64,000 nucleotides of DNA, taken from positions 208,703-272,702 of the forward strand of contig PMCS01000029.1 of the NCBI GenBank assembly GCA_003154195.1. The letters are read 5' to 3'. The stretch is from Candidatus Omnitrophota bacterium (GTDB taxonomy: Bacteria > Omnitrophota > Gorgyraeia > Duberdicusellales > 4484-171). Below are positions 30,933-54,300 of this stretch, one piece after another. The notes under the pieces were generated by a model that saw only the letters and a program-made list of their open reading frames with translations, was not told where the DNA came from and made no database searches. A program made the position numbers and the translations under genes. The stretch's first letter is position 1, and every line of letters begins with the position of its first letter.

Positions 30933-30937
30933 CGCAT

Positions 30938-39274: not shown

Positions 39275-40954
39275 ATGTCTAAAGTTATTCTTTGTATCCC
39301 CCCTGATTACGATTATAATTTTCCCCCCTTAGGCACGCCGGTCTTACTGGGATTTCTTAAAAGCAAAGGAATTAAAGCCGGGCAGGTCGATTTAAATCTG
39401 GCTTACCGCGATTTTCTTTTATCGAAAATTAAAGGCAAGGGATTGACCGCCGGCGACAAGAAATTACTTTTGCGGCGGTTGGTAAATGATTTTTTTACCC
39501 AGCGGCTTAAAGGGCATTATTATTCCCAATTGTTACCGCGTAGGCGCGGTAAGGCCTTGGCAGATCTTCCTTACGGTAATAGCTCCAACAGCTCATTTTA
39601 TTTCACCGAGCGCCTTTTATCTTCGAAGTATCTTTTTCGTTATCTGGCGGATAAGGAGAACAATACTTTTTATCAATTCTATCTCGCCGAAAGAATTATC
39701 ACTCGTCTTAAAAAAGATAAGATTGATTTGATCGGTATTTCGGTGATCTCGCCTTCGCAGGCTATTCCGGCGCTTACTTTAGGATTATTGATAAAACAAC
39801 TTCTCCCGGATGTACATGTTAACCTCGGCGGGCAATGGGTGACATTATTCCGGGATGAACTTAAAAAACGTGATGATTTTTTTGCCTGCTTCGACAGTCT
39901 GATCGTTTTTGAGGGTGAAACGCCGCTCTATGCGTTGGTCGATGCTTGGCGTGGGAGTAAAAAGGCTTTGCCGCCCTTGGCTAACGTAATTACCCAAAAA
40001 AATAAAAAACCGTTGCTTAACCCGCGAGGCGAAGATATAAACGCTTTGGCTACGCCGGATTTTTCCGGGTTACCTTTAAACCGTTATGATTCGAGTAAGG
40101 TCACGCCGCACCTTACCTATGAGACTTCACGCGGTTGTTATTGGTCTAAGTGCGCTTATTGTGTCGATTTGCCTTTACCGAAACCGTCTTATCGGGCTAA
40201 AAGCGCCGATCGTGTTGCCGCCGAAGTCAAAGAGTTGATCAAGCGATTCGGCGTAACTGATTTGATGATGGGTGATCCCGGCATGGCGCCGCGCCAGATG
40301 CTCGAAATATCGCGCGCCTTAATCAAAAATAGCATAAAAATCAAATGGTGGACCATGGCTCGCCTTGACTCCGGGTTTAACCAGAAAATTTTTGCAACAG
40401 CTAAACAAGCCGGCCTTTTCCAGGTTAATTTCGGTTTCGAATCGGCGTGTGACCGGGTGTGCGATTTTCTCCATAAAGGCAACCGGCAGGCTATTTCTGC
40501 CCGAGTGATCCAGGATTGCGCGCAATCGGGTGTTCGGGTAGATTTGCAGACCATGATCGGTATGCCGGGGGAAACGCATGGTGACGCGATGGAAACCGTC
40601 GGTTTTTTGATCGAAAATAAAAAAGATATCGCCGCCGTGACTTTTAACATTTTTTATCTCACCCCGGGTAATTATGTCTATCACAGTCCTAGGAATTACG
40701 GGGTAAGTTTTAATAAAAATAAAGTTTTACCGTTTCAATTTTTTATTCCGTTTAAAAATAAGCATGGTATGACCGCAGACCAGGCCGGGTTCATTATGAA
40801 TGTGTATCATCAGCTTTTAGCCGGGGCTAACGCCGGAACTTCAGTCTCCAAAGACCGGCGCAAACGATTCGGAAAGGTAAGTTTTTCGCTATGCGGCGAA
40901 TCCATCGGGATCAAATGGGAAAAATACGCGTCAGGAAATATTGTGATTAAATGA
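39275..40954 (+). CDS. B12-binding domain radical SAM protein (second paralog)
   Basis: 559 aa. N-terminal B12-binding-like region and radical SAM motif CYWSKCAYC. Confidence 0.85.
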   Translation: MSKVILCIPPDYDYNFPPLGTPVLLGFLKSKGIKAGQVDLNLAYRDFLLSKIKGKGLTAGDKKLLLRRLVNDFFTQRLKGHYYSQLLPRRRGKALADLPYGNSSNSSFYFTERLLSSKYLFRYLADKENNTFYQFYLAERIITRLKKDKIDLIGISVISPSQAIPALTLGLLIKQLLPDVHVNLGGQWVTLFRDELKKRDDFFACFDSLIVFEGETPLYALVDAWRGSKKALPPLANVITQKNKKPLLNPRGEDINALATPDFSGLPLNRYDSSKVTPHLTYETSRGCYWSKCAYCVDLPLPKPSYRAKSADRVAAEVKELIKRFGVTDLMMGDPGMAPRQMLEISRALIKNSIKIKWWTMARLDSGFNQKIFATAKQAGLFQVNFGFESACDRVCDFLHKGNRQAISARVIQDCAQSGVRVDLQTMIGMPGETHGDAMETVGFLIENKKDIAAVTFNIFYLTPGNYVYHSPRNYGVSFNKNKVLPFQFFIPFKNKHGMTADQAGFIMNVYHQLLAGANAGTSVSKDRRKRFGKVSFSLCGESIGIKWEKYASGNIVIK

Positions 40955-43011
40955 GCGGACAAAATATTACGTTTTTTGAGGTAAAGGGTTTTTGCATGTG
41001 GCCATTTTTACGCGCCGGCCAAAAAATATTAATTAAAAAAATAGCCGGTTCGGAATTTAATCCCGGGGATTTGATGCTTTACCATGCCGACGGCCAGTTA
41101 CTTTGCCATCGTCTGCTGCGTAAAGAGAAAAAAAACGGTAGTTGGGTATTTTATTGCCGTCCGGATACCTCCGGCCCCGGCGGGGAACCGGTTAGTGAAA
41201 ATATGGTGGAAGGCAAAGTCGCAGCGGTGGTCAGCGCGAACAAAATAGTCGGCTTGGAAACGCCTTGGGCACGCTTCCGGGCGGTTATGATTCTATTTTT
41301 TTTGTCGCCGATTTTGGCTCATTTTAACCGACTATATAAAAAAATAAAAATTCTAAAAATATTAAAAAATAACTATTTGCTTATATTTATCCTATTGTGC
41401 GCGGCAATGGTAAGAATTTGGGGGATAGGCTTCGGATTGCCGAATACAAATTGCCGGCCGGATGAGGAACAAATCGTGGATATCGTAAAATCTCCATTGC
41501 ATAATTTTAATCCCGAAGCGTTTAATTACCCGTCCCTGTACAAATATATTAATTTTTGTTTTTATGGATTATATTTTATTTTTGGTTTATTTACCGGCAA
41601 ATATAGATTGCTGTCGGATTTTGTTAGAGAGGTTGTCGTTACAAATTATAAAGACCTTTATTTAATCAATAGGTTTCTCTCCGCGTCTTTTGGCGTGGCG
41701 ACGGTATTTATGTGCTATAAGGCAGCCGAAAGATTTTTTGATAGAAAAACTGCAATAATTTCCGCATTTTTTTTGAGTTTCGCATATCTTCACGTCAGAG
41801 ACTCTCACTTTGGAACTGTTGATGTCCCGGCAGTTTTTTTTGTTATGTGCTCCATGCTTTTTATCATAAAATCTCACCAGGATAACTTAATAAAAAACTA
41901 TATTTTATCCGGGGTATTTGCCGGGCTAGCCGCTTCTACTAAATATATCGGCATCTTATTAATTGCGCCGATGTTAATTGTTAATAGTTTAAGCCTATCT
42001 CTGACTAAAGGCGAAGATAAGGCGTTGGCGCATCCGCTTTCTCCTGCTAAAAAAATGTTGTTTTTTATAATCTTTTTTATCGCGGCCTTTTTGTTAGGGA
42101 CTCCATATGCGGTATTAGATTTTAATCATTTTATAAGCGATTACTTGGGGACAATAAAACGTTTCATCCATGGGGAAGACATCATTCTTGGTAAAGGATG
42201 GTGGTATCATTTAAGGTTTTCTTTACTGTTTGGTATGGGCTTTAGTTTATTTTTCGCATCATTAGCGGGAATCTTAGTACTTATAAAAATTAATTTTAAA
42301 AAAGCGTTTATACTATGTTCCTTTCCATTGGTATATTATGCCATAATCGGCCGGGGATATGGAGTGTTCTTGAGATATGCTATTCCGCTTGTTCCCTATC
42401 TTTGCATTACTGCCGCCGTATCCACTGTATATCTTATTAATGGTCTTGGAAAATATTTAAACCCAATCTTAAATAAAGCGGTAATGCTGATATTTCCATT
42501 TTTAATTATCTTGCCTTCGGTTTATAATATTTTACGTTTTGATATTTTGCTGTCAAAAAAGGATAATCGCTTAATCGCGGCAGAATGGATCAACAAGAAT
42601 CTTCCCGAAAGAAGTTCTATCGCAATTTTTGACTCCGGCTACGGGATCCAGCTTGCCCCGGCATCCCTGGGGTTATCGGATAAAGATATGAGCCGGTCGG
42701 ATAAAATAATAATGGATTACTTAAGAAACAATAAGATCAAAGGTTTCAACCTAGACGGTTGGAATGGCCAATCAAATATGTCAAAATATATCGTTTTAGA
42801 AGAATCGCCCCTGAAGAGATTTTGTTTAATTGATCCGGAACAGAAAGAAATTATACTAAAATCTTATTATCTTTTGGCAGAATTCAAGTCGATTAACATT
42901 GACAATAAATCTAACTGGTTTGATCAGGATGACTGTTTCTATATGCCGTTCGTGGGCTTTAAAGAAATCCAAAGACCGGGTCCAAATATCTATATCTATA
43001 AAAAGAAATGA
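40951..43011 (+). CDS. Fusion protein: N-terminal S24/S26 (LexA/signal-peptidase-like) domain with Cys in the nucleophile position, followed by a GT-C (ArnT/PMT-like) membrane glycosyltransferase
   Basis: 686 aa. N-terminus VKGFCMWPFLRAGQKILIKK ... GDLMLYHADGQLLCHRLLRK follows the G-[SC]-M-x-P ... GD ... K/R layout of S24/S26 peptidases. Then more than 10 TMs. Start overlaps the stop of the B12-rSAM gene. Confidence 0.55.
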   Translation: MSGQNITFFEVKGFCMWPFLRAGQKILIKKIAGSEFNPGDLMLYHADGQLLCHRLLRKEKKNGSWVFYCRPDTSGPGGEPVSENMVEGKVAAVVSANKIVGLETPWARFRAVMILFFLSPILAHFNRLYKKIKILKILKNNYLLIFILLCAAMVRIWGIGFGLPNTNCRPDEEQIVDIVKSPLHNFNPEAFNYPSLYKYINFCFYGLYFIFGLFTGKYRLLSDFVREVVVTNYKDLYLINRFLSASFGVATVFMCYKAAERFFDRKTAIISAFFLSFAYLHVRDSHFGTVDVPAVFFVMCSMLFIIKSHQDNLIKNYILSGVFAGLAASTKYIGILLIAPMLIVNSLSLSLTKGEDKALAHPLSPAKKMLFFIIFFIAAFLLGTPYAVLDFNHFISDYLGTIKRFIHGEDIILGKGWWYHLRFSLLFGMGFSLFFASLAGILVLIKINFKKAFILCSFPLVYYAIIGRGYGVFLRYAIPLVPYLCITAAVSTVYLINGLGKYLNPILNKAVMLIFPFLIILPSVYNILRFDILLSKKDNRLIAAEWINKNLPERSSIAIFDSGYGIQLAPASLGLSDKDMSRSDKIIMDYLRNNKIKGFNLDGWNGQSNMSKYIVLEESPLKRFCLIDPEQKEIILKSYYLLAEFKSINIDNKSNWFDQDDCFYMPFVGFKEIQRPGPNIYIYKKK

Positions 43012-44447
43012 TGGAAGTTTTTTTAAAAGAAGATCACGACGAAGCGCTGAAGATTTGGCGTAAACTAAGCGTTAAAAACCTGGATTTGGTTCATGTAGAC
43101 GCACATATTGATTTCGTAATGCATTACGCGCGCGATCCCCAGGAAATACTCGCCCAGGCGGTCAATTTAAAACAACTGAAACAAAATCTCGAGTACACAT
43201 TATCTTTCTTAGAGTATGAAAAAGATTTGGATAAACAAACCGATATCGGTAATTATATTTACCCGGCGATGCGCGAAGGCCTGGTTAAAAATTTCTGGTG
43301 GGTTATTCCCGGCGATGCCGGCTCTTTTGAGAAAAATTTTAAATTGATAAAAAGGATATTTACCCGGTCGTTTACCGGACAAAAAGTAAAATTAATACAC
43401 AAAGCAAAAGGGTTAGCTTTTATTAAGGCGTGGGGTAGGGAATTTTGGGCCTGCACTTTGGAGACCTTGCCGGTTTTTTCTCAACCTGTGCTTTTGGATA
43501 TTGATACGGATTTTTTAGTGGTCGGTGATTTATCGCGCGCCGATAATACTTGTGATATCGGCAAGCGCAGGCCCTGGATAATACCGGAGGTGTTAAGAGA
43601 AAAGTTAGCCGCAAAAATAAAAAGCCCCGTGATAACTACGATTGTTTACTCGACCAACGGCGGGTTTACGCCCATGGTTTATCGCTGTCTGGGCGATGAA
43701 TTAGCCTATAGTTTTAATCAGCAAAAATTTGCCAAAAGTTTTTGCCGTCGTCGGCAAGCCGCACAAAACTTTAAAAAATTTTTAGCTTCCGGTAAAAAAA
43801 GCGATTATTGGCGGGCGGTTGGCTTTGATCCGGCCTATCGCGACGATGACAATAATTACGGGCCGTTGTATTTGGCCAAAAACCGCTTTAACCCGGCGCA
43901 AAAAGAAGTCAAAAAAATATTTTGTGTTGATCCCAAAAATCCGGCGGCTTTAAAGAATATGGGTGTAATCTTTTTGCGAAAGAAAAAATACTTGAAAGCA
44001 TTAAACTGTTTTCATTCGCCGTTAAAACAAAAATCAATTAAAAAAGGGTTACGCGCGCAAATTATTTTCGGGTTAGCTCAGGCAAATTTTGGATTAAAAC
44101 GGTTGGATGAGGCGCAAAAATTGTTTGCTTTACATCGACGCCTTATGCCGTTGGCGGGCGCAAGCTATTATTGGGCGGCAGATATTTACCGGGTAAAAAA
44201 AGAGTATGCTTTTGCCGCCGCAAGCTACCGCCACGCTTTGCGTCTAGGCGTCGGCGGGTTGGATGTTTTAGCCAAGCTTTTAAGGGTTTCTTTTAAGCTT
44301 GGCAAGACACAAAGGGATGATATAATTGCTTATGTAAAAATGCGAACCGGTAGTTTTAAGATACCGGCTAAAGGCAGCAAGCGGGTTAAGCGGAAAATAA
44401 CGATTCTTAAGCGGTTAATGAGGGAGGCAGGGGTTTATGCAAGATAA
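43008..44447 (+). CDS. Hypothetical protein: N-terminal arginase/deacetylase-fold-like (UPF0489-like) domain with C-terminal TPR repeats
   Basis: 479 aa. LVHVDAHIDF and LLDIDTDFLVVGD resemble the DAHxD / SFDxDxxDP metal-binding motifs of ureohydrolases. C-terminal TPR-like helices. Overlaps both neighbours by 4 and 11 nt. Confidence 0.4.
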   Translation: MMEVFLKEDHDEALKIWRKLSVKNLDLVHVDAHIDFVMHYARDPQEILAQAVNLKQLKQNLEYTLSFLEYEKDLDKQTDIGNYIYPAMREGLVKNFWWVIPGDAGSFEKNFKLIKRIFTRSFTGQKVKLIHKAKGLAFIKAWGREFWACTLETLPVFSQPVLLDIDTDFLVVGDLSRADNTCDIGKRRPWIIPEVLREKLAAKIKSPVITTIVYSTNGGFTPMVYRCLGDELAYSFNQQKFAKSFCRRRQAAQNFKKFLASGKKSDYWRAVGFDPAYRDDDNNYGPLYLAKNRFNPAQKEVKKIFCVDPKNPAALKNMGVIFLRKKKYLKALNCFHSPLKQKSIKKGLRAQIIFGLAQANFGLKRLDEAQKLFALHRRLMPLAGASYYWAADIYRVKKEYAFAAASYRHALRLGVGGLDVLAKLLRVSFKLGKTQRDDIIAYVKMRTGSFKIPAKGSKRVKRKITILKRLMREAGVYAR

Positions 44448-44718
44448 AGAAATTCTGAAAAAGAATAAAAATATCGTCAGCCGCGCCATCGGCGCGGAAA
44501 CCGTGCTCTTACCGATCTGCAAAGATACTAAAGAGATGAATTGTATTTATACGCTGAATAAACCGGCGGCGCGTGTTTGGGAGCTGATTGACGGTAAACG
44601 CGGTTTAAGCCGGATTAAAAAAGATATTCTCAACGAGTTTGACGTAAACGCCGGCGAACTTGATAAGCTGATGGCGGCATTGCTGAAAGACTTAAAAGAT
44701 ATAAAAGCGGTTAATTAA
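44437..44718 (+). CDS. PqqD-family protein (stand-alone RiPP recognition element, RRE)
   Basis: 93 aa. IVSRAIGAETVLLPI ... IYTLNKPAARVWELIDGKRGLSRIKKDILNEFDV matches the PqqD-like wHTH pattern. Confidence 0.7.
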   Translation: MQDKEILKKNKNIVSRAIGAETVLLPICKDTKEMNCIYTLNKPAARVWELIDGKRGLSRIKKDILNEFDVNAGELDKLMAALLKDLKDIKAVN

Positions 44719-44734
44719 GCCGTGGGAGGAGACT

Positions 44735-44944
44735 ATGAACAAACCCAAATTTAACCCGATCGTTACCCGTGTCAAGCTTAACCCCGAACAGGCAGTTTTG
44801 GCGTGCAGTTGTTATACAACAAACAGGAAATGCCCTGCCAACGGCACCGGCGGCCGAGTTGCCAACCGGAGCATTTGCCAGACCAATGTCTGTATTAATA
44901 ACTACTGCCTAAATGGAAACTCTGCAAACAGGTCATCAACTTAG
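44735..44944 (+). CDS. Candidate RiPP precursor peptide: 23-aa leader-like N-terminus plus 46-aa Cys/Asn/Ser/Thr-rich core with six Cys
   Basis: MNKPKFNPIVTRVKLNPEQAVLA | CSCYTTNRKCPANGTGGRVANRSICQTNVCINNYCLNGNSANRSST. RBS gggagg 6 nt upstream. Located between the RRE gene and the three SPASM radical SAM genes. Confidence 0.55.
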   Translation: MNKPKFNPIVTRVKLNPEQAVLACSCYTTNRKCPANGTGGRVANRSICQTNVCINNYCLNGNSANRSST

Positions 44945-44949
44945 GGGAG

Positions 44950-46029
44950 ATGCTTGCTCACGGATTAGCCTATCTTGAAGAGAAATTTTCCGATCAGCGG
45001 CATAAGCCTATAAATGGCCAGATCGATTTGACCTATCGCTGTGACTATAACTGTCGGCATTGCTATTGTAAAGGCAGTGAAAATATCGGCCGGGAATTGA
45101 CCACGGCCCAGGTCAAAAAAGTTTTAGATGAAATATATGCCGCCGGTTGTTTCTGGCTTACCTTAACCGGCGGCGACCCCTTGATCCGGCCGGATTTTAA
45201 AGAAATTTATGCTTATGCAAAACAAAAGGGGTTTGTCGTTACGATTTTAACCAATGGTTATCGCCTTAATCGCAAGTTGGTTGATTATTTCACCAAATAC
45301 CCGCCGCTTTCAATCGATATAACCCTAAACAGTCTGGATAAACTTATCTATGAAAAAATAATTGGATTTCCCGGTAAAGCCTTATCTCGTGTGTTGGATA
45401 ATATTCAATATGCATCGCGTAAGGGTATAGCTTTAATTATTAAAGCCAATGCCCTCAAAGAGAATAAAAACCAGATCGGCAGGATTAAGCGCTGGGCGCA
45501 TAATTTGCCGGGCAAATCTAAAGAAAACCTGTTTAATTTTCGTTACGACAATGTTATCTATCCGCGCTTAGATGGCGATCTTGAGCCTTGCCGCCACAGG
45601 CTTGATCAAAAAGAGCTGGGTGTTGTTTACGGGCTTGATTCGGATATTAAAAAAGACCGGCGAAATTATTTAAAAAGGGGATTTCCTTCCGGTAAAATAC
45701 CGCATCGTCCTTTGTATTTTTGTAATACTTTCCAAACGCAATTTTTTATTGATCCGTTTGGACGGTTAAAATTTTGCCCGCATACCGACAAATTCAGTGT
45801 GGATTTACGCAAGGTTTCTTTTGTCCGGGGTTTTTATGAGGAGTTCCCTAAGCTTACAACGGTGAGATTTAAAACTAATTCGCCTTGCCGCACTTGCCGT
45901 ATTCGTAAAATGTGCCGTTCTTGCCCGGCCGCTGCCCTTGCGGAGACCGGTGATGAAGAAAAGCCGGTTGAATATTTTTGCCATATGGCGCATCAATCGG
46001 CAAAAGATACTTTGCGCCTAAAAAAATAA
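44950..46029 (+). CDS. Radical SAM / SPASM-domain peptide-modifying enzyme (maturase 1)
   Basis: 359 aa. N-terminal CDYNCRHCYC. C-terminal SPASM auxiliary-cluster motif CRTCRIRKMCRSCPAAA plus the upstream Cys pair FCNTF ... KFCP. Confidence 0.85.
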   Translation: MLAHGLAYLEEKFSDQRHKPINGQIDLTYRCDYNCRHCYCKGSENIGRELTTAQVKKVLDEIYAAGCFWLTLTGGDPLIRPDFKEIYAYAKQKGFVVTILTNGYRLNRKLVDYFTKYPPLSIDITLNSLDKLIYEKIIGFPGKALSRVLDNIQYASRKGIALIIKANALKENKNQIGRIKRWAHNLPGKSKENLFNFRYDNVIYPRLDGDLEPCRHRLDQKELGVVYGLDSDIKKDRRNYLKRGFPSGKIPHRPLYFCNTFQTQFFIDPFGRLKFCPHTDKFSVDLRKVSFVRGFYEEFPKLTTVRFKTNSPCRTCRIRKMCRSCPAAALAETGDEEKPVEYFCHMAHQSAKDTLRLKK

Positions 46030-46031
46030 AG

Positions 46032-46895
46032 ATGAAAACCGGTGCTTTTAATGATTTTTGGCAGGGTATTCACGCCGACGCGGATACCAGGCATTTACCG
46101 TTGCGGGTAATGTTTGAGTTGACTTATAAATGCAACTTTCATTGCCGGCACTGCTATGTGCCGAAAAGCTGGCGCCGCAGAAAAGAATTAAACACCAAGG
46201 AAATATTAGGTATTATTAAACAACTTAAAACGGCCGGATGTTTTTATCTGGGATTTACCGGCGGCGAAATATTTATGCGTCCGGATATCTGGAAGATTTT
46301 AGAATTTTCGCGTAAGCAGGGGATGCAGATAATTTTGTATACCAACGGTTTTCTTGTTGATAAAAAAAATGCCCGGCTTATTGCCGGTATAGGGGTAAAT
46401 AAAGTAGATATTACATTGCCGGGAATAAGTGAAAAAGTTTTTGACGGTGTCACGGGAGTTAATGGCTCGCATAAGCGGGTATTTTCAGCAATTGATTTTT
46501 TACGTCGGAATAAAATAGACCTTGGCTTTAAAACCTGTTTGCTTAAGGCTAACCATGGTGAAATCAAGGCGATCGAAGCTTTTTGTGCCGGAATTAAAGC
46601 GCCGCATCGGCTTGATGATGCGCCTGTGCCGCCGATTGACCGATTGATGGCCGATCAGGCTAAACCAACCAAGTTATTTAAGTGCGGAAGCGGAATCGCA
46701 CAGTGCGCCATAACGCCGCAGGGCCAGGTAAAATTATGTCCGTTGGTTGATTGGCCGAAGATTAAGATATCCCAGAACCAAAAATTTTATCAGATTTGGG
46801 AAAAATTGCCGGAAATGATTAAAGCCGGTAAGTGCCGCCGGCCTTGTCCGTGCACCTTAGGCCGGTTAACGGAGGAGCTATGCGCTATTCAATAA
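46032..46895 (+). CDS. Radical SAM / SPASM(twitch)-domain enzyme (maturase 2)
   Basis: ATG at 46032 lies directly after the stop of maturase 1; the ORF-track start at 45978 would overlap by 50 nt. CNFHCRHCYV; C-terminal Cys cluster CGSGIAQCAITPQGQVKLCP ... CRRPCPC. Confidence 0.8.
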   Translation: MKTGAFNDFWQGIHADADTRHLPLRVMFELTYKCNFHCRHCYVPKSWRRRKELNTKEILGIIKQLKTAGCFYLGFTGGEIFMRPDIWKILEFSRKQGMQIILYTNGFLVDKKNARLIAGIGVNKVDITLPGISEKVFDGVTGVNGSHKRVFSAIDFLRRNKIDLGFKTCLLKANHGEIKAIEAFCAGIKAPHRLDDAPVPPIDRLMADQAKPTKLFKCGSGIAQCAITPQGQVKLCPLVDWPKIKISQNQKFYQIWEKLPEMIKAGKCRRPCPCTLGRLTEELCAIQ

Positions 46896-47890
46896 ACCTC
46901 GTTAGAAAGGAGAAAATTAGCGTGGATGTGCCTGCGCATAATAAGTTATCCCCCAGGAGAGGGCGTCTTTCTAACGGGGTAAAGTTTAAGATCGCCGATA
47001 TTGTTTTTAAGCTTACCAGCCGTTATCCGGTGATTTTCAAGGATAACCGGGAGCTTTATTTGCGTAAATACGGTAATTTTATTTATCGCGGTAAACAAAA
47101 CTCTGCGATAAACATATCGGTAGATGTGGTGGAAAAATTTCCCTTTTTTCCAGGCAAAAAAGTTTTTGCGGTGTATGAAGACGGCGGTGACGAGGAGCGA
47201 TGGCGGCTTTGGGAAAACAAGAACGAATATGTTTACCATTGTCCGATCCCCGAACGAGAATCTATGGCTTTCGTTGCTAAAGATTTTTCTTCTGCCCGGG
47301 CCTATGTCCCGCCGTTTGAGGGTAGATTTGCCTGGGATATCAAGGATATTCTTTATGACCTGATGCAAGTCATGCTGATTAACTATTTTGCTTATAACAA
47401 AAACGGATTGATCTTGCATGCGGCGGCGGTCAAAGATGGGCGGCAGGCCATAGTTTTTGCCGGTAAATCCGGTAACGGCAAAAGCACTACAGCGCGGTTA
47501 TGGCATCGGTATAGTAAAGCGGTGGTTTTGAACGATGACCGGGTGATTGTGCGTAAAACTGCCAAAGATTTTTTTGCTTATAGCGGGCCATGGCATGGAG
47601 AGTTTGGCAACTCGGTAGAGGCGTTTCCTAACCAGGCCCGTTTGTGCGGTTTATTCGTTTTAGAACACGCTAAAAAAAATTTTTGTTGTACTCTTCCCAG
47701 AGAAGAAGCATTTCGAACTTTATACCCTACGCTTTTTTCGGTATTTTGGAATCGCCTGTTAATGGATAATACATTGAGTTTGTGCGAAGAGCTGATAGAT
47801 ACGGCAGCCGTTTCGCGCTTGGGATTTGTTAAGGATAAAAATATAATATCTTTTGTGAGGCAAGAATTGGATGAAAGAGATTCAGTATAA
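46880..47890 (+). CDS. HPr kinase/phosphorylase C-terminal-domain-like protein (HprK-related kinase, RiPP-associated type)
   Basis: LILHAAAVKDGRQAIVFAGKSGNGKSTTA matches the HprK P-loop region. Probable ATG at 46880 after the RBS ggagg; the ORF track opens at 46832. Confidence 0.65.
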   Translation: MRYSINLVRKEKISVDVPAHNKLSPRRGRLSNGVKFKIADIVFKLTSRYPVIFKDNRELYLRKYGNFIYRGKQNSAINISVDVVEKFPFFPGKKVFAVYEDGGDEERWRLWENKNEYVYHCPIPERESMAFVAKDFSSARAYVPPFEGRFAWDIKDILYDLMQVMLINYFAYNKNGLILHAAAVKDGRQAIVFAGKSGNGKSTTARLWHRYSKAVVLNDDRVIVRKTAKDFFAYSGPWHGEFGNSVEAFPNQARLCGLFVLEHAKKNFCCTLPREEAFRTLYPTLFSVFWNRLLMDNTLSLCEELIDTAAVSRLGFVKDKNIISFVRQELDERDSV

Positions 47891-48908
47891 GAAATTCAGT
47901 TTGGCGGCGCATTCAAACAATTTAGAGCGGGGGCGGCCCAGCTATTGTCAAATGGAGCTTACTTATGCCTGTGGTTTGCGTTGTCCGTATTGTTATGCCG
48001 GAGGATATAATTGTTCCGCGCGTATTGCCCAAGAGATGAATACGGTTGAATTAAAGAAGATCATCGATGAGTTAAAGAGCCTCGGGGTCTTGTGGGTCTG
48101 CTTTACCGGCGGCGATCCTTTAATGCGCAAGGATTTCTATGAGCTTTATACTTACGCGCGAAGACAAGGTTTCTTGATCATTGTTTTTACCAGCGGATAT
48201 TCATTGACGAAAAAACACTTGGATCTATTCAGGCGCCAGCCGCCATTTAATATTGAGATAACGCTTAATGCGGTAGAAGAAAAGCTTTATGAAAAAATAT
48301 CCGGTGTTCGCGGTTCATTCGGGAGAGTTATGGCTGCGATTGAAGCTTTGCGCCGGAATAAATTACCGCTTAAAATAAAAACGATGGTAACTACGCTAAA
48401 CTTGCATCATCTTGCCGAAATAAAAAAATATTTGCGGGGAATCGGTTTGAAATTCTATCCGGATTATTTTTTAAACTCCGGTTTTGATAACGATAGGCGC
48501 CCACTGGCATTTCAGATACCGCGGGAAGCGGTCCCCGGCCGGATAAACCCTAAAGAAAATATTTGCGCTCGAGTATCGCCAAAGGGTAAAACCAGGCCAA
48601 GCCCTTTTTTTACCTGCATTGTGGCTGCCGGAGATGGATTTCAGCTCGACCCTTACGGCAATATCTCATTGTGTTTTTCTATACGTAATCCTAAAATAAA
48701 TATTCTCGAGACAGGCATTAATTTGAGGCTAAAAAATCTAGTTAAATATTTTGCCGGATTGGATTTCAAGACCGATTCAAAATGTAAAAGTTGCGCTAAG
48801 CGGGATAAGTGCGGGTGGTGCCCGGGCAAGGCATTTGTAGAGACAGGTAGCTTGGAGAAACCAGTTGATTATTGTTGTAAATTAGTCGGGGTTTATGGGA
48901 ATCAATAA
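47871..48908 (+). CDS. Radical SAM / SPASM-domain enzyme (maturase 3)
   Basis: 345 aa. CGLRCPYCYA. C-terminal SPASM motif CKSCAKRDKCGWCPGKA. Start overlaps the stop of the kinase gene. Confidence 0.85.
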   Translation: MKEIQYKKFSLAAHSNNLERGRPSYCQMELTYACGLRCPYCYAGGYNCSARIAQEMNTVELKKIIDELKSLGVLWVCFTGGDPLMRKDFYELYTYARRQGFLIIVFTSGYSLTKKHLDLFRRQPPFNIEITLNAVEEKLYEKISGVRGSFGRVMAAIEALRRNKLPLKIKTMVTTLNLHHLAEIKKYLRGIGLKFYPDYFLNSGFDNDRRPLAFQIPREAVPGRINPKENICARVSPKGKTRPSPFFTCIVAAGDGFQLDPYGNISLCFSIRNPKINILETGINLRLKNLVKYFAGLDFKTDSKCKSCAKRDKCGWCPGKAFVETGSLEKPVDYCCKLVGVYGNQ

Positions 48909-50547
48909 AAAAGATTTACTGCTTCCGTTTAAAATAGTAGTTCGGCGGCGTTACTTAAAAAGTTGGGTTATTACAACGTTTTTGGCGCTGGTTGCCGCGG
49001 GCGCCGGGTTGGCGGTTCCTTACCTGGTCAAGTTGACGGTGGACGAGGGAATCACCAAAAAAAATCTTACATTTTTTTTACTTTTGTGTCTGGCGGCAGG
49101 GATTGTGGTTTTATCGAAATATATTTTCGATGCGATTGTATCTTTGCGCCGAACGGCCTTGATGGCAAAAATACGCTTTGACTTCAACCGCCGAGTCTTC
49201 GAAAATATGTATGCGATGCCTCAATCATGGTTTGCCAAAAAAGGCGCGGGAGAAGCGATTTACGCGATTGATAACGACAGCGCTGCGCTTATCAATATTG
49301 TCGGCGCGACCGCAAACGGGGTTTTTATTGAAGCGGTCAGTGTTATCGCCACATTGGCGATAATATTATCGCTTAATACGAAGATCGGCTTAACTGTAAT
49401 CTCGTTCCTGCCGGTGATCTACTTTTTAAGCCGTCGCCGGTTCAAAAGATTGGGCGAAATCTACAAAGATGTGGCCGGAAATGCCGAGGGGATTCTTAAT
49501 TTCTTAGAAGAAAGTTTTTGGCGTTCTTACTTGATTAAAATTTTTAATGCGGCGTCGGCTGCGGTACGCCGTTATTCGCGTTTGTTGATCAAGGATACGC
49601 GGTTAACAATAAAACGTGAACGCCAGGAAGCATGGTCGTCATTGGCCCCTGCGATCTTGCCGCTGGTTGTGACGGGTGTGATCTATATTGTGTCGGGCTA
49701 TCAGGCAATTACCGGCCATCTAAGCTTAGGCACAATTGCCGCAATCGGAGGTTATATTTATCAATTCATTTCATCTTCCAGCCAATTGCTATTTAATTGG
49801 CAAGATCTGCAACCAGGATTGATTTCTGCCCAGCGCCTTGCGCCGTTGTTAACGCCGGGCAAAGCGCATTGTACAGCCGACGAGACGCCCGCGGTGGTTT
49901 TAAGCGGTGCCATAGAAATAAGCAGATTAAATTTTTCTTATGCCGGCGGACGAGATATTTTCGACGGTTTAAATCTTGATATCCCTGCCGGTGAATATAC
50001 AGTGGTTACCGGCCCTTCGGGCTGCGGCAAGACTACTCTGTTGAATTTGATCATGCGTCTCTATCCGACGGAGAAAGGCGAGATCTTAATCGACGGCAAG
50101 AATGTAAATTCACTACCGCGATCGTTGCTGGGCACGCAGATTATTCTTTGCCCCCAGGAGCCGATGCTTTGGAATGCGACAGTTTCCGAAAATATCGCCT
50201 ATCCGGCTTTAGCTTTTAGTGAAGACGATCTAAAAAATGCTGCGGCGCTAAGCGGTGCCGATCAATTTATTTCTAATTTAGAAAAAGGCTATGAAACGAC
50301 GATCGGTGAAAACGCAACGCGCCTTTCGCAGGGTCAGAAGCAGCGTATTTCTTTATCGCGCGCTTTAATAAAGCAGCCGAAAATATTATTACTGGATGAG
50401 GCTTTTAGCGGTTTACCGGAAGAAGAGGAAACATCGATTATCGCACGGTTGCGTACGCAATTTCCCAAAATGACGATTATTGCCGCAACGCACCGGTTGG
50501 CGGGCTTAAAGAATTGTGAGCGCATTATAAAATTAGGAGCAGAGTAA
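48895..50547 (+). CDS. ABC transporter, fused permease-ATPase exporter (no N-terminal C39 peptidase domain)
   Basis: 550 aa. 6-TM region, then Walker A GPSGCGKTTLLN, signature LSQGQKQRISLSRAL, Walker B ILLLDEAFSG. Confidence 0.85.
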   Translation: MGINKKDLLLPFKIVVRRRYLKSWVITTFLALVAAGAGLAVPYLVKLTVDEGITKKNLTFFLLLCLAAGIVVLSKYIFDAIVSLRRTALMAKIRFDFNRRVFENMYAMPQSWFAKKGAGEAIYAIDNDSAALINIVGATANGVFIEAVSVIATLAIILSLNTKIGLTVISFLPVIYFLSRRRFKRLGEIYKDVAGNAEGILNFLEESFWRSYLIKIFNAASAAVRRYSRLLIKDTRLTIKRERQEAWSSLAPAILPLVVTGVIYIVSGYQAITGHLSLGTIAAIGGYIYQFISSSSQLLFNWQDLQPGLISAQRLAPLLTPGKAHCTADETPAVVLSGAIEISRLNFSYAGGRDIFDGLNLDIPAGEYTVVTGPSGCGKTTLLNLIMRLYPTEKGEILIDGKNVNSLPRSLLGTQIILCPQEPMLWNATVSENIAYPALAFSEDDLKNAAALSGADQFISNLEKGYETTIGENATRLSQGQKQRISLSRALIKQPKILLLDEAFSGLPEEEETSIIARLRTQFPKMTIIAATHRLAGLKNCERIIKLGAE

Positions 50548-52116
50548 ATGCAATTTGCGGCTTTTAAGGGTGATTTAAATATGAAACATTTTTCCCACGC
50601 TAAGGGTAAACGATTCGATTTAAATGCATCGACTTCGGTGGCCCAGCAAAAGATGCATCTTTTGGAGACGCTTAAAGGCCTGGGCACAATAGTTCCTATG
50701 GATGATGATATAAAATTAGATGATTATAAAACGCTTTGTGCGCGTCCGGATACTATCCTGGTTACTGTGCACCATGCTTTGCCTTGGGCGCAGGTTCCTC
50801 GGCGGCTCTTGCTTCATTCTTTGGGTGATTTTATGTTGACCAGTGTTTATTTTGATTACGAACACTTTGCCGGCAATACCATAAATTTAATGACCAGCCG
50901 TTTGCAGGCGCAGCGCCTTAAAGAGCATTTGAGGCAAGCTGCGCCTGGCCTTGGTGTTTTTACTCCACGCCTTAAAGTTGATAATTTTTATCCGCCAAGC
51001 CCTAAAGAAAAAATAGCGGCGCGGGAAAAAATGAAACTGGCTAAAGACACCAAGCATATTGTTTATGCCGGGCGTTGGCTTTCTAACAAAGGAATCTGCC
51101 AGGCGGTTAGGGCGCTTAATTTATGGCCGTTGTCTAATATTAAAATTTCTTTTGCCGGTAATTTTGAACCAGGATTTGTGATCAGCCAGACCGGGACGAA
51201 TCATCATACTTTTTCTTCTTATTTTGAACGCGAGGCTCTGCGGCGTAATTGCCATACGCGGTTAGATTTACTTAAAGCTCATGGCCCGCAGGCTTTGCGC
51301 GAACTATTGTGGTCGGCGGATTTATTTGTTTATCCGTCGATCCATGAAGATGAAAATTTCGGCATGGTACCGCGCGAGGCAGTATTGTGCGGCGTGCCGG
51401 TTGTGGTAACGGATTTTTGCGGTCTTGGCCAGTTAGGCCGTGGTGTCGGCGGATTACTACCCACTTACCCCACATTAGCCGGGCCGCGGTATAGCCTTAA
51501 AACTTTACGTGATTTAATGACAGAAGGATTAAAGACCACCAAAGACAAATTAAAGAAAAATATTCGTTTTGTCTTTCAAGAGTGTGACCGAATTCAAGCG
51601 CGCGCAGATTTAAAACGCGCGGCTGAAACTTTATTGCACCAACGATTAGTAAAAGATCTGCCTAAGCCTAAAGAGGCCAGGAGTGAATTGCTTGCGCGAT
51701 TATTGCGTTACGCTGACCCCGGATTTTTAGAGGCAGTGTTAGAAAAAAACAAACCCTTGCCTGAGGGGTTGCTGGTGGATGGTACAGGTTGTTATAATAA
51801 AGAATTTGCTTACCATAAATTTTTAAGTGCCATCCAGGGTTTTTATACCACAGCCGCCCAGCCGCCGCAAATTGAAGCAGGGTTGGTTTTGCGGGGATTT
51901 TTCCGCTTAGCCTTATGGCAGGAAGAAAAAGCTTTGGTCGAGAATGGTTTCCCCGGGCCGCGCGTTAAGCGTTATAGCGATAAGGATTGGCATGATTTGC
52001 TTGCCTGTGTAGAAATACAGCTTGATCAGGAGATAGTTATTTATCCGCGTACGCCCGATCAGCTGCGCCTGGCGCAGGAGTTAGTGGGGTTGGGCTATCT
52101 GGCGCCGGATAGTTGA
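50548..52116 (+). CDS. Glycosyltransferase family 1/4-like protein
   Basis: 522 aa. GT4 C-terminal motif EDENFGMVPREAVLCGVPVVVTDFCGLGQL. The start may be the ATG at 50581. Confidence 0.5.
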   Translation: MQFAAFKGDLNMKHFSHAKGKRFDLNASTSVAQQKMHLLETLKGLGTIVPMDDDIKLDDYKTLCARPDTILVTVHHALPWAQVPRRLLLHSLGDFMLTSVYFDYEHFAGNTINLMTSRLQAQRLKEHLRQAAPGLGVFTPRLKVDNFYPPSPKEKIAAREKMKLAKDTKHIVYAGRWLSNKGICQAVRALNLWPLSNIKISFAGNFEPGFVISQTGTNHHTFSSYFEREALRRNCHTRLDLLKAHGPQALRELLWSADLFVYPSIHEDENFGMVPREAVLCGVPVVVTDFCGLGQLGRGVGGLLPTYPTLAGPRYSLKTLRDLMTEGLKTTKDKLKKNIRFVFQECDRIQARADLKRAAETLLHQRLVKDLPKPKEARSELLARLLRYADPGFLEAVLEKNKPLPEGLLVDGTGCYNKEFAYHKFLSAIQGFYTTAAQPPQIEAGLVLRGFFRLALWQEEKALVENGFPGPRVKRYSDKDWHDLLACVEIQLDQEIVIYPRTPDQLRLAQELVGLGYLAPDS

Positions 52117-52988
52117 GGTTTTAAATACCCATTTTTTTGTAAAACCAGTTTTAGTCCGAATTCTTTAGCGATTTTGTGGAAATAATTTAGATCACTGCGA
52201 AAACTATTTACACTGCTTTGCTGGGTGTCGAAGATTCTGCCGCAAAATTTCTGGTATAAACCAGCTTTAACCTTTGGGCTTTTGCGTTTAAGTTTATTGA
52301 TCCACCATAAATCAAGATCATCGATTTTTTCGCTATCCTTGCGTGGAGTTGGGTTAAGGCATACTCCGCATTTAGAGCACAAGGCTTTTACTTGTTTTAG
52401 ATAGGCAGAGGGTTTTTTGCGCCACCACGGGGTGTGTATATCAAATGCAGTTTTAGTTTTTAAGATTATATCGATCGCCGCGGCAACTTCGCAGAAATAA
52501 GCGCCTTGGGGGTTGATTGAAGCACTCCAGCTATTTTGTATCCAGCAACTTTCAACGGCGTTAATATAACGGTTGCCCAGAGCTTCTTTTGAGCGCAGCA
52601 TAATTGGGGCATGAAAGATTTGCCCGTGGGTGTGATTATTGGGTAGGATAGCGCCGAAAGTATCAGCAATAATGGGCGCATATTTTTTAAAGCGTTTGTC
52701 CAGAGTGCTCCATAGGCCCAGTTTTTCTGGAGGAAACTTTTTTTGCAAGTATCGGCATATCTCTTTGAATTTTGGATGTAATAATGGTTCGCCGCCCATG
52801 ACCCCGATCATGGTCGGAGTTTTAGCGATACCCTCGACTGCCGCCTTAAAATAATCCAAATCCATCATGTACGGTTTTTTATGATGTCCGACTAAACGGG
52901 TGCAATTGGCGCAGCGATAGATGCAGGCGTTGGTGACTTCGATTTGGATTGCTTCTTTTAAGATGATCGGCTTAAGCATATCAACCAT
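52095..52988 (-). CDS. Radical SAM domain protein (fourth rSAM of the locus, minus strand)
   Basis: 297 aa. VTNACIYRCANC and GGEPLLHP. C-terminal CSKCGVC. Its 3' end overlaps the 3' end of the GT gene by 22 nt. Confidence 0.75.
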   Translation of the reverse strand: MVDMLKPIILKEAIQIEVTNACIYRCANCTRLVGHHKKPYMMDLDYFKAAVEGIAKTPTMIGVMGGEPLLHPKFKEICRYLQKKFPPEKLGLWSTLDKRFKKYAPIIADTFGAILPNNHTHGQIFHAPIMLRSKEALGNRYINAVESCWIQNSWSASINPQGAYFCEVAAAIDIILKTKTAFDIHTPWWRKKPSAYLKQVKALCSKCGVCLNPTPRKDSEKIDDLDLWWINKLKRKSPKVKAGLYQKFCGRIFDTQQSSVNSFRSDLNYFHKIAKEFGLKLVLQKNGYLKPQLSGAR

Positions 52989-53046
52989 TATAGCAAATTT
53001 TGGTTTATTTTTGTTTTAAATAGTGTAAACTATTTTCAATTAAGTT

Positions 53047-53904
53047 ATGATAGAGAAAGAAGACGACAAAAATTACGCTTATCTGGCGGCCCATTTGAAG
53101 ACACTTGAGTCCGCTAAAGAAATTCTTCACGCCTTAGAGAAGCAGGGGATCGAAGCAATAATATTAAAAGGGCTCCACCTGGCCGTTAAGATTTACGACG
53201 AGCTAAACCGTCAACCGGGATCGGATATTGATCTTTTGCTAAAGCGCGCTGACATTTTCCGCGCCGAGCCGATTTTAAACGAATTGGGCTGGCGTCCTCG
53301 CGCGCCGGTCTTGCGGGATTTGGCCGATGGTAATAAACCGTGCGCGCTTAACAGCCTGATGTTTTTTCGCCCCGATAGTCTGGTCGTGCTGCATCTACAC
53401 TGGCATATCATTAACTCGACCTGGCCGCTGAACAATTATGCCAAATCCATCAATATGGAAGAAATCTGGCAAGCGGCAACCGCCGGAACGCTTGACGGCG
53501 CGCCCATCAGAGAGTTAAAACCCGAACACCTTATCATTTATTTATGCTGCCACGGATTGATTCACTATTTTGCCAAGCCGGTTTATGTTGACGACATTAA
53601 AACCGCTCTGGTACGTTTTAAAGATAAGATCAATTGGGATTTTTTGTATGGGCAAGCCCAAGAGTGGGGCGTGCGCTGGATAGTTGACTATTGTATCAAA
53701 TATATTGAAAAACCCAGGATTGGCCGATACACTAAGACTTATTGGCGGTATTTTTTCCATGAAAAAGGGATAACCGGGAAAATGTTATTTTTGTATCGGA
53801 CGTTTTTTCCCAAAAAAATTGTTATGGCTGCCGCGCACAACTTGCCGCTTGCCCAGATTGGCTTTAAACTTTACATGGATCGTCTTGAAAACATTAGTAG
53901 ATAA
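53047..53904 (+). CDS. Nucleotidyltransferase-family protein (PF14907-like, the type recurrent in lasso/RiPP clusters)
   Basis: 285 aa. Pol-beta-like NTase motif GSDIDLLLKRAD preceded by the GL..A region. Confidence 0.5.
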   Translation: MIEKEDDKNYAYLAAHLKTLESAKEILHALEKQGIEAIILKGLHLAVKIYDELNRQPGSDIDLLLKRADIFRAEPILNELGWRPRAPVLRDLADGNKPCALNSLMFFRPDSLVVLHLHWHIINSTWPLNNYAKSINMEEIWQAATAGTLDGAPIRELKPEHLIIYLCCHGLIHYFAKPVYVDDIKTALVRFKDKINWDFLYGQAQEWGVRWIVDYCIKYIEKPRIGRYTKTYWRYFFHEKGITGKMLFLYRTFFPKKIVMAAAHNLPLAQIGFKLYMDRLENISR

Positions 53905-54300
53905 ATATGCGTTTTTGTCTTTAAAGTTGATAGATCGGGGATATTTAGCGCCGGATAAAATCGCCTGGCATAAAAATCGCTTCTTAAGCAAATATGGCTT
54001 AAGGTATCCGTTTTCCTGCAAGACTAATTTTAGCCCGAATTGTTTGGCGATCCGGTGAAAATAACTTAAGTCGGAGCGGAATTGGTTAATGTTATTTTGG
54101 TACTCGTCGAAAATCGGACCACCATACCTTTTGTACAGCCCGGCTTTGACTTCAGGGCTGGTAATTTCAGTTTGGATTGCTTCTTTTGCGACGATTGGTT
54201 TAAGCGTGTCAAATATTATAACAGATTCCGGTTTATTTTTACTACTTGATTCACGATATGTCGTAAATTGGTCATTATTTGCTTTCAAGAAAAAAATCAA
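53785..54300 (-). pseudogene. Decayed partial duplicate of the 52095-52988 radical SAM gene (internal deletion; N-terminal and C-terminal pieces fused)
   Basis: Translation FDTLKPIVAKEAIQTEIT-SPEVKAGLYKRYGGPIFDEYQ ... FRSDLSYFHRIAKQFGLKLVLQENGYLKP parallels the intact gene (MLKPIILKEAIQIEVT ... KVKAGLYQKFCGRIFDTQQ ... FRSDLNYFHKIAKEFGLKLVLQKNGYLKP). DNA at 54170-54260 matches 52945-53035. The rSAM CxxxCxxC motif is lost. Confidence 0.55.

Follow-up and report, generated by a model that had tools for sequence, protein, structure and literature searches.

A probable ribosomal peptide cassette of Omnitrophota-type bacteria combining a phosphopeptide module with a radical-SAM module

Popov et al. 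(Nat Commun 2026; PMC13381572) described the linear polyphosphorylated peptides (LPP) of Bacillota, which are encoded together with a peptidase resembling signal peptidase I (SpI), LppS, a recognition element for peptides that are made on ribosomes and modified after translation (RiPP recognition element, RRE), LppB, an HprK-like kinase, LppK, an uncharacterized nucleotidyltransferase (NTP transferase), LppN, and an MsbA-like pump, LppD. Residues S29, H68 and D93 of LppS are essential, and the leader is cleaved only in the presence of the RRE, while LppK polyphosphorylates a single serine, Ser3 of the core. The set is embedded in capsular polysaccharide loci, and the family was said to occur in Bacillota only. 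Neither what is finally produced nor what it does is known, no final product having been found by mass spectrometry, and the paper makes no mention of radical S-adenosylmethionine (radical-SAM) enzymes. Here we describe a cassette of an Omnitrophota-type bacterium that has a counterpart for each part of the LPP set and adds radical-SAM enzymes to it. It lies in a stretch of 64,000 nt of PMCS01000029.1 (positions 208,703 to 272,702, forward strand), the whole of which is called the window below, with coordinates counted from its first base.

Several other described systems share parts of the cassette. In the lasso peptides paeninodin (PadeK) and pseudomycoidin (PsmK/PsmN), a kinase of the HprK family polyphosphorylates the C-terminal Ser, and an NTP transferase of the PF14907 type is required for placing a hexose on the phosphate (PMC6993621). 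The SynChlorMet cassette, defined computationally by Haft (NCBIfam TIGR04248-TIGR04251), consists of a PqqD homologue, the HprK-related protein ScmC and two paralogous radical-SAM/SPASM genes; our literature search found no paper on it. SkfB, CteB, PapB, SuiB and PqqE combine a radical-SAM core with a C-terminal SPASM/twitch region and act on a Cys-bearing peptide. Peptide arginases (PF12640), such as OspR, FlmR and OhkR, convert Arg to ornithine in landornamide and in orphan RiPPs (PMC12703449, PMC10028609). The precursor types described for them (NHLP, N11P, SCIFF, SCCRRSCN, DD(I/V)LF and MGXRRSSE; PMC12703449) do not include the type found in the window.

The cassette of the window (Table 1) probably unites two modules, an LPP-type one for a phosphopeptide and a SynChlorMet-type one of radical-SAM enzymes, by which a ribosomal peptide would be modified and then exported. 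The system is an undescribed hybrid of described modules, RiPP in kind, extended by a peptide arginase and by a precursor family that is new and very large. An earlier note on this stretch had proposed an undescribed RiPP system that matches no described class. The proposal was right in kind, and no paper describing an LPP-type set joined to three radical-SAM enzymes was found in the literature, but the modules themselves have been described (LPP, SynChlorMet), and several particulars of the note were wrong or out of date. A literature search for RiPPs in Omnitrophota found nothing specific, and the radical-SAM RiPP compendium and the RRE-Finder paper do not mention a kinase/NTP-transferase context.

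All open reading frames (ORFs) named in that note were found in an ORF listing where it had placed them. Its view that the genes form one operon, which takes in the preceding GT-C and TPR genes, agrees with junctions of -20 to +26 nt between consecutive genes from 39275 to 52116. A single operon of at least 39275-53904, dedicated to a ribosomally made and post-translationally modified peptide, therefore appears likely from the gene layout. A scan for consensus promoters and terminators did not exceed the shuffled expectation (37 vs 44 promoters and 34 vs 30 terminators), so that the operon structure rests on gene spacing.

Table 1. Coordinates of the features of the cassette within the window and the matches that define them.
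Feature	Coordinates	Strand	Evidence
B12-binding radical-SAM protein, RiPP C-methyltransferase-like, accessory	39275..40954	+	PF02310, PF04055
Archaeal/ER-type signal-peptidase-I domain (S26B, SipW/SEC11-like)	40951..41350	+	A5 profile; TIGR02228 sigpep_I_arch E 2e-7
GT-C (PMT_2/protein-O-mannosyltransferase-like) membrane glycosyltransferase domain	41351..43011	+	PF13231 E 5.5e-16; PF02366 E 1e-12
Peptide arginase (PF12640) fused to TPR domain	43008..44447	+	PF12640 33.0 bits vs cut-off 27
Discrete PqqD-type RRE	44437..44718	+	PF05402, 36.8 bits vs cut-off 23.4
Precursor peptide, 69 aa	44735..44944	+	Ribosome-binding site GGGAGGAG; family alignment A1
rSAM1, radical-SAM/SPASM maturase orthogroup 1	44950..46029	+	PF04055 E 1e-24; TIGR04085 33.8 bits vs 27
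rSAM2, radical-SAM maturase orthogroup 2, shortened auxiliary-cluster domain (half-SPASM/twitch-like)	46032..46895	+	PF04055 E 8.5e-23
ScmC-family P-loop protein, HprK/PEPCK fold	46922..47890	+	TIGR04249 ScmC E 4e-6; Foldseek
rSAM3, radical-SAM/SPASM maturase orthogroup 3	47871..48908	+	PF04055 E 1.8e-23; TIGR04085 26.0 vs 27
MsbA-like fused ABC exporter (transmembrane and nucleotide-binding domains)	48895..50547	+	PF00664, PF00005; MsbA_lipidA 269 bits (top NCBIfam match)
GT4 glycosyltransferase, accessory	50548..52116	+	PF00534 E 1e-15; PF20706
PF14907 nucleotidyltransferase (PsmN/LppN-type NTP transferase)	53047..53904	+	PF14907 E 5.6e-35

Synteny was assessed by phmmer searches with the window proteins against all ORFs of related loci, together with gene tables. 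The loci carry L-numbers: L001-L006 are near-identical copies of the contig in several metagenomes (peat, fen and other), and L007 onward are relatives, GTDB species representatives included. Nearly all relatives are metagenome-assembled genomes (MAGs) of Candidatus Omnitrophota, and the nearest genome representative to the window is a fen MAG (L010). The recurrent gene order begins in some loci with a B12 radical-SAM gene, continues with a small S24/S26-like protein, a PF12640 plus TPR protein, PqqD and one or more precursors, and ends with rSAM1, rSAM2, ScmC, rSAM3, the ABC exporter and the PF14907 gene, often followed by a Wzz/GNVR tyrosine-kinase gene. The order in L007-L009 is the same as in the window, and likewise across the GTDB loci. 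PqqD, rSAM1, rSAM2, ScmC and rSAM3 occur together in 25 loci, each in a single copy apart from L050, with two rSAM1 genes, and L059, with two ScmC genes. The same modules recur in two distant clusters. L080 contains NTP_transf_5, PqqD, one radical-SAM gene, a 56-aa peptide, ScmC and Peptidase_S24, in that order, and in L081 SpI, PqqD and a precursor come before a pair of radical-SAM genes, ScmC, one further radical-SAM gene and the ABC exporter; the PF14907 gene is present in both. In these distant clusters the modules travel as a unit.

The SynChlorMet cassette shares with the window the PqqD homologue, the ScmC protein and the paralogous radical-SAM/SPASM enzymes. The window differs from it in having three radical-SAM genes instead of two, as well as an SpI peptidase, an arginase, an NTP transferase, an ABC pump and an identified precursor family. 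All of its scores fall far below the SynChlorMet trusted cut-offs: 26.2 vs 125 for ScmC, 17.3 vs 100 for ScmD, at most 71.6 vs 400 for ScmE and at most 68.2 vs 400 for ScmF.

Pfam and NCBIfam scans of the 69-aa precursor peptide returned no matching model, and its leader string appears in no relevant paper of the literature search. The earlier note had placed this small ORF, with its own ribosome-binding site, 17 nt after PqqD; the ORF and the site stand, and the gap is 16 nt. In the peptide a leader, MNKPKFNPIVTRVKLNPEQAVLA, is joined through CSCY to a core in which N, R, S and T abound, and the C-terminus is SST; the Cys are at positions 24, 26, 34, 48, 53 and 59. A word-indexed search found 40 close homologues of 64-93 aa. 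In their alignment (A1) F6, P8, T11 and K14-L22 (K-LNPEQAVL) are invariant, the C-terminal residue is Ser, and C24, C26 and C48 are the only conserved Cys, C48 lying within an otherwise hypervariable core. The six Cys to which the note had drawn attention are therefore present in the window peptide but are not a trait of the family.

A search of the GTDB species representatives with the back-translated leader yielded 70 loci with 92 unique precursors. The family leader, [K/R]FxPxhTR[VI]KLNPEQAVL, is near-invariant and is followed by a CxC or CC junction and then by the hypervariable core, so that two junction subtypes, L-x-C-x-C-[Y/W/F] and L-S-C-C, can be distinguished among the 92 copies. 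These have 3-5 Cys after the leader, mostly 4, which makes the six of the window an outlier, and they end in Ser (81/92) or Thr (10/92). An exhaustive profile search of 1.84 billion protein representatives gave 842 matches at E<=1e-3 and 607 at E<=1e-10, mostly from Omnitrophota. Of 170 metagenome representatives inspected among the 842, 169 end in Ser/Thr, the lone exception being truncated, and 159 have CxC plus an aromatic residue. With the exception of one truncated sequence, at least three Cys are found in every one of the 92 copies and 170 representatives. The peptide of the distant cluster L080, of 56 aa, reads YEKPVV...EEAVLGFC...PGS. Judged by this conservation, which extends to the syntenic loci, the small ORF is a genuine precursor family, far beyond chance. 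A second precursor copy was looked for within the window and none was found.

Two further arrangements of precursor genes were seen in the relatives. In L032:7151-7990, L043:8868-9623 and L047:9533-10255 the PqqD RRE and the precursor lie within one ORF of 240-279 aa, in which the RRE domain is followed by a low-complexity linker rich in K, R and E and by a complete leader and core. These ORFs look like RRE-precursor fusion proteins, three in one marine Omnitrophota MAG (JAHJHM01). The L-S-C-C subtype occurs in some genomes as many paralogues, with tandem arrays of up to seven genes (e.g., L062:7927-12119). Further paralogues of this subtype are on L058, L064, L068, L070, L072, L075 and L078 in MAG STF1_137 and on L063, L066, L071 and L077 in MAG STB_176. 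They are spread across about ten contigs, mostly distant from any maturase gene, and the arrays resemble the multi-precursor arrangement of the prochlorosins.

The identification of the gene at 44437 as PqqD-like, made in the earlier note, is borne out by a Pfam match above the cut-off. Its top NCBIfam match is lasso_PqqD_Bac, and in a search of the PDB with the family profile the lasso RRE TbiB1 is nearest (E 1.8e-7), followed by PqqD (E 1e-4) and the RREs of entries 9x8z and 9x90. The motif aromatic-x-x-P-x-hydrophobic is read by lasso, LPP and PQQ RREs (PMC13381572). In the 92 precursor copies the corresponding part of the leader takes the form [YW]xxPxh (17/92) or FxPxh (58/92). The LPP leader, YxxPxVLxHQxIxFETxxS, has only this aromatic-x(x)-P-x-h part in common with the KLNPEQAVL type of the window. 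As in the window family, the N-terminus of LPP precursors is conserved and their C-terminus hypervariable; they differ from it in that Cys and a C-terminal Ser/Thr are obligatory in the window family. The best sigma-70-like site of the region (44299-44326, + strand; TTGGCA, 16 nt, TG-TATAAT, 11/12 match) lies within the arginase-TPR gene, 110 nt 5' of PqqD. Judged by its sequence it may act as an internal promoter from which RRE and precursor are transcribed, in a scan that as a whole was not above chance.

The P-loop protein between rSAM2 and rSAM3, for which the best start is a GTG at 46922 with a GGAG ribosome-binding site, had been noted as HPr-kinase-like. Its fold is HprK/PEPCK-like, within the ScmC family, but PF07475 has no match in it. 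NCBIfam gives weak matches to HprK_rel_B (1.5e-5), HprK_rel_A (7e-5) and PEPCK (E 0.004), and in precomputed Pfam assignments the window protein and 54/56 homologues among the matches listed belong to PF27840 (ScmC). A search of PDB sequences with the family profile gave generic P-loop matches only, with HprK at E 0.29, and was uninformative, so a structure model was needed. With E-values of 1e-4 to 1e-3, Foldseek matched the model (pLDDT 92.1) to ATP-PEPCK and HprK/P. H166 is invariant, and so are the Walker A motif G181-x-S-G-x-G-K-S-T189 and the residues D205-D206-R207. The invariant D205-D206 corresponds to the DD pair required in the lasso kinase PsmK, whose D158A/D159A double mutant is inactive (PMC6993621). 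Together, the sequence and the model point to a probable peptide Ser/Thr kinase, and the near-universal Ser/Thr at the C-terminus of the precursors points to a phosphorylation site of the lasso type.

The earlier note had also listed a fused ABC exporter after the radical-SAM genes, which proved to be MsbA-like, and a PF14907 gene, which is present and contains the nucleotidyltransferase motif GSDIDLL in translation. HMM scans found no peptidase domain (no C39) in the exporter. The exporter gene follows rSAM3 in most related loci, and the PF14907 gene directly follows the exporter in L009, L010, L013 and L014. In the window the GT4 gene starts at the base right after the ABC stop codon; orthologues are found in L007 and L010, with weaker matches in L023 and L034. 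The statement that HprK-like kinases and PF14907 proteins are associated mainly with lasso peptides is now out of date, as the LPP family has both (PMC13381572). A lasso peptide was considered as the product and rejected: neither an Asn-synthetase-like lasso cyclase nor a transglutaminase-like B2 protease is present in the genes scanned across 20605-62718 or listed in the related loci. The phosphorylated lasso peptides share the discrete RRE and the ABC pump with the window, and differ from it in that the window has radical-SAM enzymes and that its leader would probably be removed by an SpI-like peptidase.

This peptidase had escaped the earlier note, which was right about the missing cyclase and B2 protease, and about a GT-C domain; a locus free of any protease is not supported. 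The SpI domain takes up the N-terminal ~135 residues of the GT-C protein (686 aa; 40951-43011). In a search of the PDB the family profile aligns with SEC11A/C at E 4e-8, including the SM-P, HR and GD motifs (catalytic Ser, His and Asp), and within the family there is no change at H53 or R54, while conservation at D72 is at least 90%. In most loci SpI is a stand-alone gene of about 135 aa. The GT-C domain is specific to the clade of the window, and in L010 SpI and GT-C are separate genes. By homology the SpI domain is a probable RRE-dependent leader peptidase, which brings the correspondence with LPP to the peptidase (SipW-like, with Ser/His/Asp), the RRE, the HprK-fold kinase, the NTP transferase and the MsbA-like pump. 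The SpI-GT-C fusion is identical in the independent assemblies L001-L003, L005 and L006.

The TPR protein that precedes PqqD was likewise recognized in the earlier note by its TPR domain but not by its N-terminal peptide arginase. NF052474 (pept_arginase) matches it at E 2e-8, with a score of 34 vs a cut-off of 350. The motifs EDHDEAL, HVDAHID and LLDIDTDF are present (motif definitions: PMC12703449), and in 19 orthologues the six metal ligands H10, D31, H33, D35, D164 and D166, as well as H29 and D168, are all invariant. The window enzyme keeps the DXHXD, EEH(N/H)EAF-like and LDIDLD-like motifs and the six Mn ligands of OspR, FlmR and OhkR, and differs from the known peptide arginases in its C-terminal TPR fusion. 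Searches of the PDB were uninformative, the profile being swamped by TPR proteins and the single sequence reaching only 8BRP at E 0.09, so the identity rests on Pfam, NCBIfam and motif conservation. The B12 radical-SAM gene at the start of the operon overlaps the next gene by 4 nt. Its product matches TIGR03975 (RiPP maturation radical SAM C-methyltransferase) better than any other NCBIfam model, at E 4e-30 but below the cut-off. L007, L009, L010, L016 and L028 have an orthologue at the same position, and L029 and L057 have one at another place in the cluster.

The three radical-SAM genes distinguish the cassette from the LPP set, in which the product is linear and phosphorylation is primary; in the window family the three SPASM orthogroups are obligatory neighbours, to which the peptide arginase-TPR protein and the B12 radical-SAM protein are added. 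The CX3CX2C motif reported for all three is present. The claim that each also has a SPASM region needs grading: TIGR04085 is passed by rSAM1, is borderline in rSAM3 and matches rSAM2 over the first half of the model only (positions 1-41, 15.1 bits). Pfam SPASM (PF13186) has no significant match in any of the three, and the point was settled by TIGR04085 and Cys conservation. A seven-Cys SPASM pattern is kept across 34-39 orthologues of rSAM1 (C258, C276, C313, C316, C322, C325 and C344) and of rSAM3 (C249, C268, C305, C308, C314, C317 and C336, all invariant). In rSAM2, which starts at 46032 and not at 45978 according to the gene callers, C218 and C236 do not vary, and a cluster of Cys lies after them at the C-terminus. 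The full-length paralogues share 25-32% identity (25% between rSAM2 and rSAM1, 32% between rSAM3 and rSAM1) and are therefore ancient and, apparently, non-redundant. Three obligatory paralogues per pathway set the window apart from the SkfB, CteB, PapB, SuiB and PqqE pathways. CteB and SuiB carry an N-terminal RRE domain and rSAM1-3 do not, as would be expected if a discrete PqqD serves them the way PqqD serves PqqE. A scheme with one radical-SAM enzyme per conserved Cys was rejected, given Cys counts of 3 to 5 and the single enzyme that L080 has for a peptide with three Cys.

Another radical-SAM-like gene with CX3CX2C lies at 52095..52988 on the minus strand, convergent with GT4 (PF04055 28.4 bits, just below the cut-off of 29.5). 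It has orthologues only in the close relatives L007/L008 and L010, with C22, C26 and C29 conserved, and its membership in the operon is uncertain. A degenerate copy of it with an internal deletion (phmmer 85 bits) is the 171-aa ORF at 53785-54300 (minus strand), overlapping the PF14907 gene at its 3' end. The CX3CX2C region is missing from this copy, which is probably what remains of a pseudogene.

From these assignments a course of maturation can be proposed, whose steps are given in order. The PqqD protein would bind the leader at its [F/Y/W]x(x)Pxh portion and offer the peptide to the other enzymes. Each of rSAM1-3 would perform a distinct, non-redundant radical modification of the Cys-containing region; by analogy, thioether cross-links of the sactionine or ranthionine type from the conserved Cys are the most likely product. 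The arginase would turn Arg of the core into ornithine, and the B12 radical-SAM enzyme may C-methylate the peptide. The ScmC protein would act like PadeK and PsmK of the lasso peptides and (poly)phosphorylate the conserved C-terminal Ser/Thr, after which the PF14907 enzyme, with GT4 and/or GT-C, could put a sugar on the phosphate or on the Ser/Thr-rich core. The SpI-like domain would cut off the leader in an RRE-dependent manner, as LppS does, and the ABC pump would export the product to the envelope, where it would probably act with the surrounding exopolysaccharide machinery.

Both LPP and the window cassette are set in capsule or exopolysaccharide loci beside a tyrosine autokinase, and gene scans on both flanks confirm the glycosylation/polysaccharide locus that had been reported around the cassette. 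An unlikely elaboration is that the peptide, instead of being secreted as a free natural product, serves as a primer, anchor or cap covalently joined to the exopolysaccharide or capsule through its phosphorylated C-terminal Ser/Thr, with the help of the NTP transferase, GT4 and GT-C. The result would be a peptide-polysaccharide conjugate whose peptide part is hardened by radical-SAM cross-links and ornithines. This would explain why Omnitrophota cassettes and the LPP/paeninodin cassettes of Bacilli reside in polysaccharide export loci beside a Wzz-type tyrosine autokinase, why a leader peptidase is fused to a GT-C glycosyltransferase, and why the final LPP product was not found by mass spectrometry.

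Three rival explanations are less consistent with the pattern of conservation than a fused LPP/SynChlorMet cassette. The one that survives best, though it is distinctly improbable, takes the system as a plain sactipeptide or ranthipeptide pathway of the SCIFF type, in which the six Cys are thioether donors and the kinase and the NTP transferase are incidental; the earlier note had seen a similar signature in the genes. The rSAM1 model (AlphaFold2, pLDDT 92.4) agrees with this insofar as the thioether synthases SkfB and CteB are among its nearest Foldseek matches, together with PqqE and SuiB (E 1e-12 to 1e-11), as do the Cys of the core, the discrete-RRE logic and weak C-terminal matches to PapB and TIGR03974 (E 0.03). 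However, the fold of PqqE and SuiB is just as near, and neither is a thioether enzyme. A SCIFF identity as such was rejected, since no SCIFF precursor or maturase model passes: TIGR03973 has no match at E<=1, and TIGR03974 gives 13.5 bits vs a cut-off of 425 on the radical-SAM proteins, on which the NCBIfam models of PapB, AlbA, SkfB and StsB are all far below cut-off as well. The signature also fails on the side of the peptide, where no SCIFF or other precursor model matches, only 3/6 Cys are conserved and most members have 3-4 Cys. ScmC, the C-terminal Ser/Thr, the exporter and PF14907 are conserved as much as the radical-SAM genes, and therefore belong to the core of the system instead of being incidental to it.

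It is very unlikely, next, that the peptide is an LPP-type phosphopeptide only and that the three SPASM enzymes act on sugars or lipid-linked polysaccharide intermediates of the locus. LPP systems do function without radical-SAM genes, the locus is rich in sugar-modifying genes (GT2, DegT, GT4, GT-C, Wzy, Wzz), and DesII and BlsE are among the fold matches of rSAM1. Yet the best fold matches are peptide maturases, the three genes are placed directly between the precursor and the exporter, and at least three Cys are kept in every precursor but the truncated one. Moreover, in loci with other polysaccharide genes or none, such as L081, beside AbiE genes, and L080, beside housekeeping genes, the radical-SAM genes still accompany the precursor, PqqD and ScmC. 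Least probable of all is a sacrificial precursor of a small redox cofactor, similar to PQQ or mycofactocin and built from CxC-[Y/W/F] with an irrelevant variable tail, for which the best radical-SAM HMM matches (MftC, PqqE, NirJ, AhbD), the discrete PqqD and the CxC plus aromatic residue as sole invariant non-leader residues (159/170 sequences) can be cited, but which does not accommodate the many paralogous precursors of some genomes in tandem arrays of up to seven, unlike cofactor genes, the alternative CC junction without an aromatic residue, the conserved C-terminal Ser/Thr, dedicated exporter, leader peptidase, arginase and NTP transferase, the location inside polysaccharide export loci and the lack of a linked cofactor-dependent dehydrogenase.

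Against the preferred reading, of an LPP-type module fused to a SynChlorMet-type one, a number of points have to be weighed. We infer all of the modifications from homology. The best NCBIfam matches of rSAM1-3 (MftC, NirJ2, PqqE, AhbD) cover the N-terminal core only, and no family-specific NCBIfam model is near its cut-off; scores this far below the cut-offs do not fix the reaction type. In Foldseek anSME, MoaA and the sugar-modifying enzymes DesII and BlsE are only slightly further from rSAM1 than its nearest matches. The Cys count (3-5) does not follow the number of radical-SAM genes, L080 having one gene and a three-Cys peptide. PF07475 (Hpr_kinase_C), whose absence also separates the window kinase, of the ScmC family (PF27840), from LPP, does not match the ScmC protein even at E<=10, and the Foldseek TM-scores of this protein are low, 0.25-0.45. 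The site of LppK is Ser3 of the core and not the C-terminus, so that a C-terminal site in the window family is a guess. Position 15 of SpI, the nucleophile, is Ser in most orthologues, as in LPP, but Cys in the window, L007 and L010, and the Pfam S24 score of the domain is under the cut-off. The higher Arg content of the cores beside an arginase gene (7.9% vs 3.0% elsewhere; Mann-Whitney p=5e-5), which speaks for the arginase step, comes from a comparison that makes no correction for phylogeny. Finally, single-sequence phmmer searches of 44 cluster loci found SpI in 13/44, the arginase in 20/44, the NTP transferase in 18/44 and the ABC exporter in 24/44, low counts that are due in part to contigs being cut.

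Omnitrophota are an uncultured phylum of very small cells. If the reading holds, a large and essentially unexplored RiPP family would be a characteristic feature of this phylum, its diverged precursors numbering at least 842 and a single MAG having up to about ten contigs with precursor genes. It would supply a candidate precursor type for Haft's orphan SynChlorMet cassette and a link to the LPP phosphopeptides of 2026, which were thought to be confined to Bacillota; the hosts of the window family are Omnitrophota and other uncultured phyla. The peptide arginases would gain a new precursor type and a TPR-fused architecture, and three anciently diverged SPASM enzymes in one pathway are promising ground for finding new radical chemistry on peptides. 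With cassettes in the polysaccharide loci of two distant phyla, a role in the capsule or biofilm matrix becomes a testable question.

The genes upstream of the cassette encode AAA_22, HD and coiled-coil proteins, a Wza-like Poly_export protein, GT2 and DegT, and those downstream Wzz/tyrosine kinase, glycosyltransferases and Wzy. A conserved block at 27083-33038, found also at L007:1534-6145, contains AAA_22 ATPase(s), an HD_5 phosphohydrolase, a coiled-coil protein and a Poly_export/SLBB (Wza-like) protein, while at L009:1228-3285 only the HD and AAA_22 genes are kept, in reversed order. That the block travels with the cassette in distant relatives suggests a larger envelope/exopolysaccharide supra-operon. 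Just upstream of the cassette, a second B12 radical-SAM gene at 35691-37154 (HpnJ/BchE-like, E 5e-58) and the gene at 37320-39206 for a 628-aa polytopic membrane protein, for which there is no Pfam match, were found only in the near-identical contigs; they may belong either to the peptide or to the polysaccharide pathway. Two adjacent hybrid two-component proteins at 21719-25846, one a response-regulator/histidine kinase and the other a 999-aa dCache-PAS-HisKA-HATPase-receiver protein, may regulate the downstream envelope locus. The sole Rfam/ARAGORN match within the 64 kb is a tRNA-Met (CAT) gene at 12208-12282 (+).

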